IMG/VR virus record: IMGVR_UViG_3300032117_002338
Coordinates: 1 to 53,414 of that record
Reading direction: 5' to 3' (one strand)
Source: a virus
Taxonomy: Duplodnaviria; Caudoviricetes
Length of the DNA: 53,414 bases
Shown: piece after piece, positions 3,999 through 42,542 of the stretch
How positions within the stretch are numbered: position 1 is the first letter of the stretch
Layout: each line of letters starts with the position of its first letter
The notes under the pieces: generated by a model
What the model saw: the letters and a program-made list of their open reading frames with translations, nothing else
Told to the model about the DNA's origin: nothing
Database searches by the model: none
Program-made: the position numbers and the translations under genes

Positions 3999-5019
3999 CA
4001 CGCCTGGGAAACCGCTGCGCGCCTACGACGGAGACGGCAACTGGCGAGATTTAAGCACCGACGAACTGGTCGGAGCCAGGCTCAACGGATATCGCGGGTG
4101 GACGTGTGCCATAGGTGTGGATAACCTGTTCATCAACCCAGACGGCAACGTCTACGGCGGTGCCTGCGAGGTCGGCGGCAAGCTGGGTAACATATATGGA
4201 GACTTTTCCATACCAGATGCATGGTCAACCTGCAGCAAATTGCTGTGCACCTGCGGCAGCGATCTTTTCATACCAAAGGCCAGGACCCCATACGAGACCA
4301 ACCTCCTTCGCAAGTCCAAGAATCTGCCAACCCAGACCAACAGGCGTCGCAATAGGATATCGGAGATGGCGGCGCTTGAGAGAACCCACAGCGCAGGTGT
4401 CAAGCAGATATATTGGGAGATAGGCAGGCGTTGCAACTATGATTGCGGCTATTGCTGCCCGTCCATACACAACAACCACGAGAGGCACAAGACCCTGGAT
4501 GAACTGCTGACCGCCACCAAGCTGTTACAGCAGAGGTTCATCGGCGTCGGCGGATGCAACTGGATCATAAGCGGTGGCGAGCCCACCGCCAACGGCGCGT
4601 TCCTCGATTGGTGCAGATACATAAGCTCGTGCGGATACCACCTCAGCATGCACAGCAATGGCAGCAGGAAGCCCGACTATTACCGAGAGCTGATAAGATA
4701 TGGTAACCTAAACCTCAGCGCACATTACCAGTTCTGGAATCCAGACAAATTCATAGACGTGGTGGCCGCCGTGACCGAGGCCAAGGCGGCCGCCGACAAC
4801 GCCGGCATGGGGCATCTGGAGGTAAAGCTGATGATGACCCCCGGATCGAGGCAGACGACCTTGGATTTCGAGGAGAGGTTGAAGGCCATACCACGTTTCA
4901 CCGAATACTGCACATGGGCCATAGTGCCGGTCAGGGACGGCGACAGGGATGATGCCGTCCTGGACGGATACGATGAGGTTGATTTCGCTCTGTTCGGGGA
5001 TCGCCTGGATGGCAGATGA
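3988..5019 (+). CDS. Radical SAM protein with N-terminal SPASM/twitch-like domain
   Basis: N-terminal CAIG...INPDGNVYGGAC...CSKLLCTC; then CNYDCGYC, ISGGEPT, SNGSR. Confidence 0.9.
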   Translation: MDDSTPGKPLRAYDGDGNWRDLSTDELVGARLNGYRGWTCAIGVDNLFINPDGNVYGGACEVGGKLGNIYGDFSIPDAWSTCSKLLCTCGSDLFIPKARTPYETNLLRKSKNLPTQTNRRRNRISEMAALERTHSAGVKQIYWEIGRRCNYDCGYCCPSIHNNHERHKTLDELLTATKLLQQRFIGVGGCNWIISGGEPTANGAFLDWCRYISSCGYHLSMHSNGSRKPDYYRELIRYGNLNLSAHYQFWNPDKFIDVVAAVTEAKAAADNAGMGHLEVKLMMTPGSRQTTLDFEERLKAIPRFTEYCTWAIVPVRDGDRDDAVLDGYDEVDFALFGDRLDGR

Positions 5020-5068
5020 CGCGGCGGCAAACATACCTGTGGTTGGCGGATCGATCGCAAGGGGAGAT

Positions 5069-6403
5069 ATGATGGGCACCATATGCACCATACCGTGGCA
5101 TCACATAGGAATACAGCAGAACGGAGACTATCGCATGTGTTGCCAGATGGTGCATCAGCCGTACGGCAAGTTGGCGGACGGTGAAGGCGGCCACATGAAC
5201 GTGCTACGGCATACAATGGACGATGCCAGGAACCACGATACCATGCGAGAGGTCAGGCGCAGCATGATCCAAGGCAAGAGGCACACCCTGTGTAGGTTAT
5301 GCTATGAGGAGGAGGATGCCGGATTGCCCAGCAGGAGGATCACCACCAACGACAGGGTTAGCCAACCCCACATGGAGAGGATGCTGACCGAGACCGCACC
5401 CGATGGTTCCATCGACACCGATGCCTTCCCATTGACGTACTATGACATCAGGTTTGGTAACCTATGCAACCTGAAGTGCAGGAGCTGCGGTCCGAGCGAT
5501 AGCAGCATGTGGTATGAGGACTACTTCAGGATGGTCGATCCCAGCGACGGGGTGGCACCGTTCTGGCACTACAGCAGCAACAAGCTGACCAGATATTCCA
5601 TAACCAAATCTGACAACATGTATGTCTTCAACCTCCCGGAGGAGTTTGAATGGTATGATCGTGAGGAGTTCTGGGATCAATTTAGGTCAAACATACGCAA
5701 CGTGGAGACCATATACCTAACCGGAGGTGAACCAACCATCAACAAGGCACATTTCAGGCTGCTGAAGCTGTGCATAGATGAGGGCGTGGCCGGGAACATC
5801 AACCTTGAATACAACTCCAACATGTGGGCAATACCCGATCATCTGCATGATCTATGGAAGCCCTTTGGGCATGTCAACGTGGGATGCAGCGTGGATGGCA
5901 AGGATCACATGGCCAACTACCTAAGGCCGCCCAGCACGTGGGACAGGCTGGAGAGGAACCTGGACAGGTTGGGATATTCAGATGCGGCCAACATCAGCGC
6001 CAGCATCGCCACCACCATCAGCGTCTACAACGTGCTGCACTTCATCGACCTAACCAAGTGGTTGACAGGCAAGATGTATCCCAGGATGGATGATATACCA
6101 TTGTTCCACATGCTACACAGCCCTGACTATCTCAACGTGCAGGTGCTGCCTCGCCACATCAAGGACATGATAACCATGAGGTACGAGGAGTTCTACGGCG
6201 AGATAGAATCAAGCAACGGCAGGGATTGGGCAGATCTCGTGCGTGGGAAGCTATCGGGGATAACCACCTTCATGAACGCCAATGACCTATCGGATCACCT
6301 AGGCGATCTCAAGCGCATCACAGACAGGCTGGACGGCATGCGAGGCCAACGCCTGTCTGATGCCGTGCCGTGGCTGCACGATGCGCTGAGATTCGTGAAA
6401 TGA
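5069..6403 (+). CDS. Twitch-domain radical SAM protein
   Basis: CTIPW...GDYRMCC N-terminus, CNLKCRSC motif, LTGGEPT; start at 5069 (GGGGAG RBS) or 5009. Confidence 0.9.
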   Translation: MMGTICTIPWHHIGIQQNGDYRMCCQMVHQPYGKLADGEGGHMNVLRHTMDDARNHDTMREVRRSMIQGKRHTLCRLCYEEEDAGLPSRRITTNDRVSQPHMERMLTETAPDGSIDTDAFPLTYYDIRFGNLCNLKCRSCGPSDSSMWYEDYFRMVDPSDGVAPFWHYSSNKLTRYSITKSDNMYVFNLPEEFEWYDREEFWDQFRSNIRNVETIYLTGGEPTINKAHFRLLKLCIDEGVAGNINLEYNSNMWAIPDHLHDLWKPFGHVNVGCSVDGKDHMANYLRPPSTWDRLERNLDRLGYSDAANISASIATTISVYNVLHFIDLTKWLTGKMYPRMDDIPLFHMLHSPDYLNVQVLPRHIKDMITMRYEEFYGEIESSNGRDWADLVRGKLSGITTFMNANDLSDHLGDLKRITDRLDGMRGQRLSDAVPWLHDALRFVK

Positions 6404-24995: not shown

Positions 24996-25019
24996 GAACA
25001 AGCTGACGTATTGATACGG

Positions 25020-25053
25020 ATGGGAGAGATGATTCATCTCTCCCATTTCATTT
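25020..25053 (+). terminator. Terminator after pqqA
   Basis: ATGGGAGAGAT-GATTC-ATCTCTCCCAT then TTCATTT. Confidence 0.75.
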
Positions 25054-25098
25054 GACGGCAGGCTAGACCATACCGGGTGCGTGCGCTATAATTCGACG

Positions 25099-25353
25099 AT
25101 GGATAAGACCGAATTCTACGCTGAATGTGACAGGCTGCTAGGGCAGCATCACCCACCACCAAAGACATACGGATACAGGGGCCGTTGGGGCCCACGTGAA
25201 CCTGGTTCAGGGAGGTTCGAGGGATACGGGCTCATACGTTGGATGAGCCAGCGGGTGGTGCACATAGCGCTGAGGCATCCCGTGCACCTGCAGACGCATG
25301 CAACCCCCGAGCGTGCGCTGGAGATCCTAGCTGAGATGATGGAGACGCGGTGA
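25099..25353 (+). CDS. Hypothetical protein
   Basis: 84 aa ORF shortly after TATAAT. Confidence 0.65.
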   Translation: MDKTEFYAECDRLLGQHHPPPKTYGYRGRWGPREPGSGRFEGYGLIRWMSQRVVHIALRHPVHLQTHATPERALEILAEMMETR

Positions 25354-25520
25354 TGCTGCGCAAGGCATGGCGGTATTGGGCTAAGGCCCTGGGGGAGAAG
25401 GCATCCGACGATTCAGCCGAGGCTGACAGGGTGGCGCTGATAAGGACGGCCATAGTGCTGTGCTACATCATCACCAACTGCTTCATCGTCGCCGGCGTCA
25501 TCAAGCACTGGAACCAATAG
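25353..25520 (+). CDS. Small phage membrane protein (WRYWAKALGEKA...IRT type)
   Basis: 55 aa, TGATG overlap, C-terminal hydrophobic helix. Confidence 0.7.
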   Translation: MLRKAWRYWAKALGEKASDDSAEADRVALIRTAIVLCYIITNCFIVAGVIKHWNQ

Positions 25521-25522
25521 AC

Positions 25523-25582
25523 GCATCCGTAGCTCAGTGGAACAGAGCAGCAGACTTCGAATCTGCGGGTCGGGGGTTCGAA
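25523..25582 (+). pseudogene. 5' part of canonical tRNA-Arg(TCG), interrupted in the T loop
   Basis: GCATCCG-TAGCTCAG...GCAGA-CTTCGAA-TCTGC...GGGGGTTCGAA then breaks into HNH gene. Confidence 0.85.
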
Positions 25583-26290
25583 CATAAATAGAGTATGAAC
25601 TATAAGAAACTTTACGACAATATCATATCTAAGGCCAAAACAAGACCAATCTCAGGTTATACTGAAAGGCATCATATTGTACCCAAGTCGTTCGGAGGTA
25701 CTGATAAGAAAGATAACATCGTTAGGTTAACTGCTAGGGAACACTTTATCTGCCATTATCTCCTATGTAAGATAACAGTTCCTAAATCTATCGAATGGTA
25801 TTCGGCTATAAAGGCATTTAATATGATGTGTTCTAAATCTAACACACATCAAAGATACATTAACTCGCGACTATACCAGTCAATGCGACAGCATATGTCT
25901 ATTACAATGAGTAATCTTCAGTCTGGTTCTAAGAACTCTCAATATGGAAGTTGTTGGATAAACAAGGAAGGTATCGTAAAGAAAATTCCTCAAGAATATC
26001 TCACAACATATGAGCAAGAAGGTTGGCAAAAAGGTCGAAAACCTCCAAAACCTCCAAAAGTAAGACCAGACAAACCTCTGAGAATTCTGAAGCGTCCTCA
26101 ATCTTCGGGTGTTAAGAATAGCCAATTTGGCTCATACTGGATCAACAACGGTAAAGACAATAAGAAGATTCGATCATTAGATATTCCATCTGGATGGACC
26201 AAAGGTCGGTTAATGAAAATGATAAATTAGCACCCGTATGCCGCCTGGCTTCGAACCAGGAGAAAGCTAATGGAATCACGGGGGTTCGAA
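25583..26290 (+). mobile_element. AT-rich HNH cassette inserted in tRNA-Arg, bounded by 12-nt direct repeat CGGGGGTTCGAA
   Basis: Repeat at 25571-25582 and 26279-26290; abrupt GC drop. Confidence 0.75.
25595..26230 (+). CDS. HNH homing endonuclease
   Basis: MNYKKLYDNII...YTERHHIVPKSFGG...NIVRLTAREHFICHYLL; repeated SGxKNSQxGSxWIN..GWxKGR modules. Confidence 0.92.
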   Translation: MNYKKLYDNIISKAKTRPISGYTERHHIVPKSFGGTDKKDNIVRLTAREHFICHYLLCKITVPKSIEWYSAIKAFNMMCSKSNTHQRYINSRLYQSMRQHMSITMSNLQSGSKNSQYGSCWINKEGIVKKIPQEYLTTYEQEGWQKGRKPPKPPKVRPDKPLRILKRPQSSGVKNSQFGSYWINNGKDNKKIRSLDIPSGWTKGRLMKMIN

Positions 26291-26307
26291 TCCCTCCGGG
26301 TGCTCCA
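26230..26307 (+). tRNA. Non-canonical tRNA-Arg(TCG) lacking a positional D arm
   Basis: GCACCCG/CGGGTGC-T-CCA; only 7 nt before CCTGG-CTTCGAA-CCAGG; 19-nt variable region; canonical T arm. Confidence 0.7.
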
Positions 26308-26392
26308 ATTAAATGTTGACGCGTCATGCAACCGTCACACACCCGCGGTTAAATAACCGTGCGATGCAACGACAACACAGCAGGGGTGACAC

Positions 26393-27442
26393 ATGTCCAG
26401 GGTACTGTTCATACTGAAGCGCAGGGAAGATTTCAACAGTGCCGTGCACAACAAGATAGGGCTGACCACCGGCCTATACAACTCGGCCAAGTTCATGGAT
26501 GACATGCTGGTCGACAATGGCGTCGACAGCCGGTTGGAGGTGGTCATAGACAACAACGACATAGATAGGGTGGTCACCGCGCACAGGCCCACGCATGCGA
26601 TAATAGAGGCGCTATGGGTGGTGCCGACCAAGTTCGCGGAGCTGAGGAGATTGCATCCCAACGTGACATGGATCATACGCCTGCACAGCGAGATGCCATT
26701 CATGGCCGGCGAGGGCATGGCCATGGATTGGATAGGCGACTACAGCGGCATGGCCAACGTGATCATGGCCTGCAACGCGCCTAGGATGCTGAAGGAGATA
26801 CGCAGCTACCTGGGGATCCGCAACGGATGGAGCGAGGAGATCGCGGCGCAGAGGGTCATATACCTTCCCAACTTCTATCCACAGGCATACACGAACAAGC
26901 AGCCGGATCGCGAAAAAAACGTCATTGATATCAGCTGCTTTGGGGCCATCAGGCCGCTTAAGAACCATCTGTTGCAAGCACATGCCGCGATACAATTCGC
27001 GGAGGTCCTAGGCAAGAGGCTTAGGTTCCACGTCAACGCCGGGCGCATCGAGATGAAGGGCGAACCCATGGTCCACAACCTCAGGGGGTTGTTCCAACAG
27101 CTGGCGGAACGGGGGCATGCCCTGATAAACCACGAGTGGGCCCCGCGTGAGGAGTTCCTGCGTCTGTGCGCCACCATGGACATGGGCATGCAGGTCAGCT
27201 TCTCGGAGACCTTCAACATAGTGGCGGCGGATCTCATCAGCCAGGGCGTCCCTGTGGTGGGCAGCATCGAGATACCATGGATGACCGCGGACTGCTGCGC
27301 CGATCCAACCAACAGCGAGGACATGGTGGCCAAGATGATCAAGGTGTGGGACGATCCCTCCGCCGTGGTTTCGGCCAACCAATCGGCTCTCACCGAATAC
27401 ACCAACCAGACCGTGGCCCAATGGCTGCGGCAGCTATCATGA
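26393..27442 (+). CDS. Glycosyltransferase (GT-B fold)
   Basis: FGAIRPLKN, SFSETFNIVAADLISQGVPVVGS nucleotide-sugar motif. Confidence 0.85.
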   Translation: MSRVLFILKRREDFNSAVHNKIGLTTGLYNSAKFMDDMLVDNGVDSRLEVVIDNNDIDRVVTAHRPTHAIIEALWVVPTKFAELRRLHPNVTWIIRLHSEMPFMAGEGMAMDWIGDYSGMANVIMACNAPRMLKEIRSYLGIRNGWSEEIAAQRVIYLPNFYPQAYTNKQPDREKNVIDISCFGAIRPLKNHLLQAHAAIQFAEVLGKRLRFHVNAGRIEMKGEPMVHNLRGLFQQLAERGHALINHEWAPREEFLRLCATMDMGMQVSFSETFNIVAADLISQGVPVVGSIEIPWMTADCCADPTNSEDMVAKMIKVWDDPSAVVSANQSALTEYTNQTVAQWLRQLS

Positions 27443-42378: not shown

Positions 42379-42542
42379 TCATGAGATGTGCATACTTGCA
42401 CGGTAAATACCTCACCGCAGATCATGCGGTTGGATAGCTCTCATAGTATAAAAGCAGTACACGTGATTGGTAATCACGAGACGCAGGGGCGGTACCTGCT
42501 GGGAGCACCATTCCTCACCCAGAGGACGATAAATATTCTTCC

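Follow-up and report, generated by a model that had tools for sequence, protein, structure and literature searches.

A phage tRNA-Arg(UCG) gene with an apparently transposed D strand and D loop

The DNA under study (hereafter the window) is a stretch of 53,414 nucleotides (nt) that makes up the whole of the IMG/VR virus record IMGVR_UViG_3300032117_002338 (Duplodnaviria; Caudoviricetes). The record is estimated to be 13% complete and the window is therefore a piece of a jumbo phage. Positions 26230 to 26307 hold a tRNA-Arg(UCG) gene that has no D hairpin. Comparison with its relatives suggested that the D-stem 5′ strand and the D loop were moved to the other side of the anticodon arm. We consider it probable that this gene specifies a working tRNA-Arg(UCG) with a rewired core, that it belongs to a family of "D-transposed" tRNAs found in phages and that it was brought to its present location by an insert carrying an HNH endonuclease gene.

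The gene came to attention through a reading of the sequence alone, which had described a perfect 7-base-pair (bp) acceptor stem, an encoded CCA, canonical anticodon and T arms, a variable region of 19 nt and the lack of a D hairpin. All of these features were seen at 26230-26307. The general attributes of a tRNA are present: a 7-bp acceptor stem followed by a discriminator base, a 5-bp anticodon stem closing a 7-nt loop with U33, and a T loop of the TTCRA type. The acceptor and anticodon stems are separated by a gap of 7 nt only (26237-26243), made up of U8, A9 and five further bases; thus, the D hairpin expected between positions 9 and 26 is absent and 5 nt stand in its place. The gap between the anticodon and T stems, on the other hand, measures 19 nt (26261-26279) and contains the sequence TAATGGA. 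Linker bases 26240-26241 can pair with bases 26267-26266, just ahead of this motif. The sequence-only reading had further proposed that a D-stem 5′ strand and the GG of the D loop had been relocated to the variable region. As described below, this proposal gained support from covariation of the linker, from D-loop-like variation of the motif, from a pair resembling 15-48 and from an identity-linked base following the GG.

A pattern search for D-armless phage tRNAs and a covariation analysis had been suggested along with that reading. Relatives were collected by blastn of phage isolates, by three pattern scans of viral contigs and by a parse of the fetched loci. The parse required pairing in the acceptor, anticodon and T stems together with the UA-R...GG motif, and left the base after GG free. 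The resulting family comprises 95 distinct sequences from 74 loci, nearly all of them on uncultured viral contigs, and both a linker helix and the 15-48-like pair covary within it. The displaced GG, initially noticed in a single gene, is conserved in 94 further distinct homologues. Two types could be distinguished by the length of the linker, which is 5 nt in type A (as in the window; 70 members counted and one further member) and 6 nt in type B (24 members). In the least biased of the scans, which fixed the anticodon loop CUUCGAA, a gap of 22-34 nt and the T loop and nothing else, rewired tRNAs were found in 49 of 115 viral loci. The identical pattern applied to bacterial and archaeal genomes (one per species, approximately 185,000) matched at least 120 loci, with one family member among the matches listed; it comes from a metagenome bin, on a contig of 4 kb.

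Family members also occur in cultured phages, namely the Streptomyces phages TunaTartare, Mildred21, Braelyn, Persimmon, WhereRU and Navo and the Microbacterium phage Zooman. The sequence was inspected in TunaTartare, Mildred21 and Zooman, the other four isolates being blastn matches over 74% of the query. The TunaTartare copy is unannotated, is missed by ARAGORN and directly follows an HNH/endonuclease VII gene. The Mildred21 copy (locus L330, 1195-1270) also lies right after an HNH gene; in GenBank it is annotated as tRNA-Phe(gaa), the loop having been misread, and is truly an Arg(UCG) gene. The Zooman copy is unannotated and flanked by canonical Arg(acg) and Arg(ccg) genes. Among the uncultured sequences, a 15.9-kb viral contig contains a rewired array with anticodons CAU (twice), UAU, GAU, UCG and ACG (locus L066, record G001, around 4000-5200). 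A 3-kb contig from a freshwater run, with a depth of about 385, carries a rewired Arg(UCG) gene with a different acceptor stem (match to window positions 26236-26274), indicating that rewired genes occur in very abundant lake phages. A search of the full-text literature, with subscription journals and supplements outside its scope, returned no description of rewired tRNAs. Judged by the sequences collected, the window gene is a member of a widespread phage family, neither a one-off nor a wreck.

Evidence for the new wiring came from covariation. The pairing register was fixed by anchors only: the bases after U8-A9 on one side and the bases before the UA-R motif on the other. Under this convention, the second linker base and the last base before the motif are paired in 70 of 70 type A members (CG 44, GC 12, UA 12, AU 2), and so are the third linker base and the next base upstream of the motif (GC 30, CG 27, AU 10, UA 2, GU 1). 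The fourth linker pair is present in 38 of 70, and registers shifted by one position gave between 13 and 49 pairs out of 70. In a MAFFT alignment of 69 type A rows, a few of them misaligned (A1), the corresponding columns 11-44 (CG 43, UA 12, GC 10, other 4) and 12-43 (GC 29, CG 25, AU 10, UA 2, GU 1, other 2) show the same exchange of pairs. The whole structure is 94.6% paired in A1, as opposed to 33-47% with the partners slid, and the observed covariation score was reached by none of 500 shuffles.

In type B members (22 aligned; A2), the three bases starting with A9 pair with the three nucleotides following GG-N (AAC/GUU, AGC/GCU, AGU/ACU, ACA/UGU), giving an additional 3-bp helix. This helix covaries too (AU 9, GC 8, CG 3; CG 12, AU 3, UA 3, UG 3) and turns the D-loop-like motif into a bulge within a 6-bp helix. 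A comparable second helix in type A, joining A9 and the first linker base to the bases after GG-A, was looked for by eye in some members; it fits only the window and was dropped.

The motif itself behaves as a D loop. All 95 members contain UA-R-N(1-3)-GG-N, which has the pattern and the length variation of D-loop positions 13-20. U8 and the A of the motif (A14) are invariant in the family; in a parse that did not require the TA of U8-A9, 90 of 94 candidates had it and the other four were false positives. Furthermore, the motif R and the last base before the T stem covary in the manner of the 15-48 pair (AU 79, GC 10, other 6 of 95), in both A1 (AU 62, GC 5, other 2) and A2 (AU 16, GC 4, other 2), the G-C cases being found in at least 10 unrelated members of both types.

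A further indication was provided by the anticodons. These are confined to Arg (ACG, UCG, GCG, UCU, CCU) or to CAU, UAU and GAU, and a relaxed parse of all loci collected revealed no other amino-acid class. After GG, 85 of 86 Arg members have an A, and all nine CAU/UAU/GAU members have U or C; with the pattern that leaves this region unconstrained, an A follows GG in 48 of 48 UCG members. All 11 non-Arg members carry A as their discriminator. In an excerpt of PMC9976931, Arg identity in bacteria is ascribed to A20, C35 and U/G36, and the Ile set includes U20, U21 and A73. As far as the sequences tell, the identity-linked bases of the family match these bacterial Arg and Ile sets, and the window gene carries C35 and G36 in its anticodon and an A after GG in the transposed loop. 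Together, the linker pairing, the covariation of R in the 15-48-like pair and the identity-linked base after GG suggested that the D strand and the D loop are transposed. Apart from the family, tRNA-Ile(UAU) genes 92-95 nt long were noticed at L354 2682-2776 (−) and L261 571-662 (−); they combine a normal D arm with a long variable arm, an unusual class-II-like form of tRNA-Ile.

We postulate that the acceptor/T-arm half of the molecule is canonical and that the canonical block 10-21 (D-stem 5′ strand and D loop), which normally separates positions 9 and 22, has been shifted so that it now separates positions 45 and 48. The chain would then run through U8-A9, the D-stem 3′ strand, the anticodon arm, an A-rich connector, the D-stem 5′ strand, UAAUGGA and a short tail into the T stem. 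The first two bases of the connector are likely the equivalents of positions 44-45. The short pseudo-D stem would stack on the anticodon stem, A14 would meet U8, R15 would meet the base preceding the T stem, and the GG would dock on the T loop to form the elbow; A20 would be offered to arginyl-tRNA synthetase along with C35 and G36. All of these tertiary contacts are predictions. In the canonical tRNA-Phe structure, base 9 lies on the D stem, base 45 beside pair 10-25 and base 21 beside base 48; on this geometry, each of the three new joins would span a short distance. The model suggests that the classic tRNA shape can be built with a different wiring.

The alternative of a plain D-armless tRNA, Y-shaped like mitochondrial tRNA-Ser(AGY), with a floppy variable loop, no rebuilt elbow and a UAAUGGA sequence kept for some other reason (for instance as a protein site), appears quite unlikely to us. 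The covariation of the linker helix and of the 15-48-like pair, the invariance of U8 and A14 and the variation of the R15-to-GG spacer between 1 and 3 nt, as in real D loops, all speak against it. Moreover, the T loop is strictly canonical even in members that turned up only in flanks and were thereby unselected for the T loop, where drift would be expected if no contact with a D loop existed. What this alternative has in its favour is that such tRNAs work in mitochondria and that a synthetic one works in E. coli (in the relevant passages of PMC11551756), and that the linker helix is 2-4 bp only and is not predicted by energy models.

The gene was also expected, on first reading, to escape standard tRNA finders. 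This was borne out with ARAGORN, whose 30 tRNA calls in the window include neither an Arg tRNA nor the rewired gene, and which in bacterial mode returned nothing for 91 of the 95 family members and over-long calls or wrong anticodons for the other four. It did not hold for the Rfam tRNA model (RF00005), which reports the window gene with 39.4 bits against a gathering score of 29, aligning 15 D-arm model positions to 4 nt and placing a 16-nt insertion in the variable region. A family covariance model built from 69 relatives (R1) gave the window gene 82.5 bits and any canonical tRNA of the window at most 34.2 bits. Folding of the single sequence was uninformative (minimum free energy −27.6 kcal/mol, z −0.92; 38 of 200 shuffles fold equally well). 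The possibility of a class II tRNA with a long variable arm was rejected, as the 19 nt of the window form no predicted hairpin (0.0 kcal/mol). In the family, the variable region forms no hairpin of its own in 38 of 95 members and one of −2 kcal/mol or lower in 20 of 95; it pairs with the 5′ linker instead. Elsewhere in the window, at 42437-42507 (+), lies a tRNA-like sequence with anticodon GGU (Thr) and CCA, whose D loop has no GG and whose T loop reads GGCGGTA and not TTCRA; it scores 50.1 bits with Rfam and elicits no ARAGORN call.

The repertoire of rewired genes was compared with the canonical set in a complete phage record of 173.6 kb (G005). Two of the three that it contains, UCG and ACG, form a tandem pair within the main tRNA array, and the third, UCU, lies at another site. 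ARAGORN identified 34 distinct tRNA genes in this phage (35 calls, one doubled by overlapping stretches), CCU being the sole Arg anticodon. One of the tRNAs called, at L360 17683-17758, has the anticodon CUA and is labelled tRNA-Pyl; it may be an amber suppressor. In TunaTartare, genes for Arg acg, tct and cct are annotated within a 34-kb tRNA-rich stretch and the rewired gene is UCG. The Arg anticodons of these two phages thus indicate that the rewired genes complete Arg sets. Zooman is an exception, having both a canonical and a rewired Arg(ACG) gene. The tRNA-rich region of TunaTartare (L482, record positions 70258-87170) also has annotated genes for a Ro-like RNA-binding protein, an RNA ligase and a polynucleotide kinase, which looks like a tRNA repair or quality-control kit.

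Charging of the window tRNA by the arginyl-tRNA synthetase of the host and decoding of CGA and CGG would be in keeping with these features. The synthetase, EF-Tu and ribosome of E. coli accept a D-armless tRNA without adaptation, according to an extract of PMC11551756. CGA and CGG are used 7.4 and 6.5 times per 1000 codons in the window, frequencies that are not decisive. A look-up of RNA runs for window positions 25400-26500 listed none with this stretch, an outcome that argues neither for nor against expression. A 6.5-kb contig from another study differs from the window at 24 positions and by a 9-nt deletion over 25000-27000, with the tRNA unchanged, which is weak support, about one change being expected there by chance.

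The surroundings of the gene tell how it might have arrived. Immediately upstream is an endonuclease gene that matches Pfam HNH with 18.7 bits only, below the cut-off, and shows blastn similarity to T4-type mobE genes; its G+C content is 36.6%, compared with 55.6% for the window. This gene is part of a 708-nt insertion bounded by a 12-nt direct repeat with 100% identity (25571-25582 and 26279-26290), so that the limits of the insertion can slide by 12 nt. The insertion is preceded by a dead fragment of a canonical tRNA-Arg(UCG) gene that retains the acceptor 5′ strand, a normal D arm, the anticodon arm, the variable loop and the T-stem 5′ strand. This canonical gene is intact in two metagenome contigs (L484 and L485), which share 76-88% identity with the window on either side of the site and do not have the 708 nt. 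By blastn, L485 447-933 corresponds to window 25099-25582 and L485 1046-1736 to window 26391-27081. The window segment 26279-26307 is identical at 28 of 29 positions to the 3′-terminal 29 nt of the intact gene in L484 and L485 (L485 922-950). The sole difference in this 3′ end, a G at 26300, pairs with C 26233 and changes the resident U4-A69 pair to an incoming C4-G69 pair. An earlier idea, taken from L250, that the acceptor 3′ strand of the window is simply the resident strand was rejected, since the resident strand in L484/L485 differs by one base. L250 is the closest relative among viral contigs and has a canonical Arg(CCG) gene at that spot. The insert would hence have cut the resident tRNA-Arg(UCG) gene in its T loop and supplied in its stead a gene of identical anticodon. 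As in a SegB-like intronless cassette, the window carries the endonuclease gene while L484 and L485 lack it at the same site. A group I intron carrying the HNH gene was considered and rejected: there is no Rfam intron match, 12 nt precede the open reading frame (ORF) and the tRNA starts at the stop codon. On the other side of the tRNA, an ORF of 349 amino acids and unassigned function occupies window positions 26393-27442 (+); its relatives, with 54-71% identity, are found in 102 viral contig stretches, mostly jumbo-phage fragments.

Such a history raises the possibility that the gene is a dead by-product of endonuclease-driven rearrangement, i.e., a scrambled tRNA pseudogene. It does lie within an insert that broke a canonical tRNA gene, with the dead 5′ piece of that gene just upstream, and tRNA fragments are, in the part of PMC9897764 concerned, a common source of false tRNA calls. 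We regard this explanation as very improbable. It is contradicted at the family level, where compensatory changes maintain every stem in 95 distinct sequences, and many members are part of plain tRNA arrays that contain no nuclease gene (for example L003 and G005). In addition, an endonuclease-free relative of TunaTartare (L005) already has the rewired gene, and in the window acceptor pair 4-69 is intact across the junction.

The association with HNH genes is nonetheless recurrent. An upstream flank of 300 nt or more was available for 72 members, and in 15 of these an upstream ORF ends within 40 nt of the tRNA. Clear HNH matches were obtained for the window, L023, L024 and L001, and also for L330, a duplicate of a counted member; the upstream protein of L068 has no family match and resembles that of L024 by eye. 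An endonuclease 51% identical to that of the window abuts a rewired Arg(ACG) gene in L493. This was the case in one of 33 homologue loci, most others lying among canonical tRNAs. From the 15 abutting ORFs and the few clear matches, the HNH link is recurrent but not defining. Both the repeated proximity to HNH genes and the redundancy of the rewired Arg(ACG) gene beside a canonical one in Zooman would suit a tRNA-shaped RNA that does not serve in decoding, either a decoy for a host defence enzyme or toxin that cuts tRNA, or an endonuclease-resistant allele marking the home of the cassette. This we deem unlikely: such an RNA would have no need of five Arg anticodons, of canonical anticodon loops or of discriminators and bases after GG that agree with the amino-acid identity. 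In the complete 173.6-kb phage, the Arg anticodons absent from the canonical set are precisely those that the rewired genes supply, and 57 of the 72 members are without an adjoining nuclease gene.

A bolder interpretation, possible if doubtful, is that these are active tRNAs with the first natural non-cloverleaf core outside mitochondria, the rewiring having been selected as invisible to nucleases directed at canonical tRNA-Arg and tRNA-Ile. The nucleases might be the homing endonucleases of the cassettes, host defence RNases that read the D arm, the variable pocket or the elbow, or both, and the cassettes would overwrite canonical phage tRNA genes.

Several observations weigh against a functional rewired tRNA as proposed here. 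The window copy is the weakest of its kind, with a linker helix of 2 bp followed by a C-A mismatch, and at its 15-48-like pair A is opposite C, one of two A/C exceptions among the 95 members. The T loop was a set part of two of the three patterns used for retrieval, and UAAUGGA of one. The GG and the T loop never vary, so that covariation is silent on a contact between them. The proposed structure is computed at −26.6 kcal/mol, 1 kcal/mol above the minimum and hardly different from the three stems alone (−26.4 kcal/mol), and RNAalifold on A1 predicted just the three long stems and not the short linker helix. Since neither RNAalifold nor nearest-neighbour energies favour this helix, the case for it rests on covariation. 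Finally, a search with the family covariance model for a rewired gene beside the conserved neighbouring gene was negative in all 80 loci of related jumbo phages, where the only matches, two in L300 with 33-36 bits, are at the level of canonical tRNAs. This absence suggests that the gene was acquired recently along with a selfish element, and the phage could be tolerating it without needing it.

Table 1. Layout of the rewired tRNA-Arg(UCG) gene and of the insertion that carries it (window coordinates; functional labels within the tRNA follow the proposed fold).
Feature	Position	Strand	Evidence
Putative rewired tRNA-Arg(UCG) gene, whole, with discriminator T and encoded CCA	26230..26307	+	sequence; Rfam tRNA 39.4 bits; family covariance model 82.5 bits
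Acceptor stem 5′ strand, partner 26297-26303	26230..26236	+	7/7 Watson-Crick; all 7 pairs covary in family
U8 A9	26237..26238	+	TA invariant in alignments A1 and A2
5′ linker, proposed 3′ strand of pseudo-D stem; last base equivalent to position 26	26239..26243	+	covariation
Anticodon arm with 5-bp stem and CUUCGAA loop (UCG at 26251-26253)	26244..26260	+	all stem pairs covary
A-rich connector AGAAA from anticodon stem to transposed D strand	26261..26265	+	AGAAA or UGAAA kept in many type A members
Proposed transposed D-stem 5′ strand, 2 bp in window copy, 2-4 bp in relatives	26266..26267	+	covariation
Proposed transposed D-loop equivalent UAAUGGA: A14, A15, G18 G19, A20	26268..26274	+	motif UA-R-N(1-3)-GG-N in family
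Tail into T stem; last base C equivalent to position 48	26275..26279	+	15-48-like covariation in family
T arm: 5-bp stem (one G-U pair), canonical loop TTCGAAT	26280..26296	+	stem pairs covary
Acceptor 3′ strand and discriminator T (26304); CCA follows at 26305-26307	26297..26304	+	sequence; 26297-26303 pairs with acceptor 5′ strand
HNH homing endonuclease gene, 211 amino acids; stop codon overlaps first base of tRNA	25595..26230	+	PHROG phrog_655 "homing endonuclease", E 1.7e-45
Dead 5′ 60 nt of resident canonical tRNA-Arg(UCG), cut in T loop	25523..25582	+	Rfam tRNA 30.5 bits; intact in L484, L485
708-nt insertion: 12-nt leader, HNH gene, 5′ three-quarters of rewired tRNA	25583..26290	+	repeat search; blastn synteny with L485

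If the proposed wiring is correct, these genes represent a natural rearrangement of strand order in the tRNA core and would imply that contacts, rather than strand order, make a tRNA. The presence of the family in cultured Streptomyces and Microbacterium phages makes the proposal directly testable. As annotation misses or misnames the genes, the Arg and Ile tRNA sets of phages would be undercounted, with consequences for inferences on codon usage and host range. The fold could also serve as a scaffold for orthogonal tRNAs. At the locus studied here, a selfish nuclease would have replaced a canonical tRNA gene by one built differently.

Canonical bacterial and phage tRNA-Arg (RF00005) shares with the rewired genes the acceptor stem, discriminator, CCA, anticodon arm, T arm, U8, GG-A and the Arg anticodons. 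It differs in that the D strand and loop of the rewired form lie 3′ of the anticodon arm, with a changed order of strands in the core. Mitochondrial tRNA-Ser(AGY), which is D-armless, and the synthetic "mini HisT" of an evolved E. coli have a similar connector of about 5 nt between acceptor and anticodon stems and, in the portions of PMC11551756 and PMC4033280 that deal with them, demonstrate that a tRNA may lack a D hairpin and still take part in translation. Those molecules are described there as Y-shaped, with no contact between D and T loops. In the rewired genes, by contrast, the D-loop motif and the 15-48-like pair are present together with U8 and a T loop of canonical form, from which the L shape is probably rebuilt. 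Bacterial-type tRNAs are described as uniformly cloverleaf, and natural armless tRNAs as confined to mitochondria (PMC4033280, PMC11551756); the rewired genes, unlike organellar D-armless tRNAs, sit on phage contigs.

Permuted tRNA genes, known from Cyanidioschyzon merolae, some green algae and Thermofilum pendens, likewise have their parts in a non-standard order. The pertinent section of PMC4033280 states that they mature to normal tRNAs and that bacterial tRNA genes lack structural diversity. Unlike genes permuted in the C. merolae fashion, in which the 3′ half precedes the 5′ half and the two are joined via a circular intermediate, the rewired gene has its acceptor strands at both ends. 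It lacks a bulge-helix-bulge site and would give rise to a mature RNA with the altered wiring. With regard to mobility, the nearest studied case is, by analogy, SegB of phage T4, whose gene lies in a tRNA cluster and spreads with neighbouring tRNA genes (from excerpts of PMC2330249 and PMC13096335). The SegB site contains a conserved T-stem-loop motif (same excerpt of PMC2330249), and the junction in the window falls in a T loop. SegB is a GIY-YIG enzyme in these accounts, whereas that of the window is of the HNH type (phrog_655), and the insert presumably broke the resident tRNA gene while bringing in a structurally different replacement.

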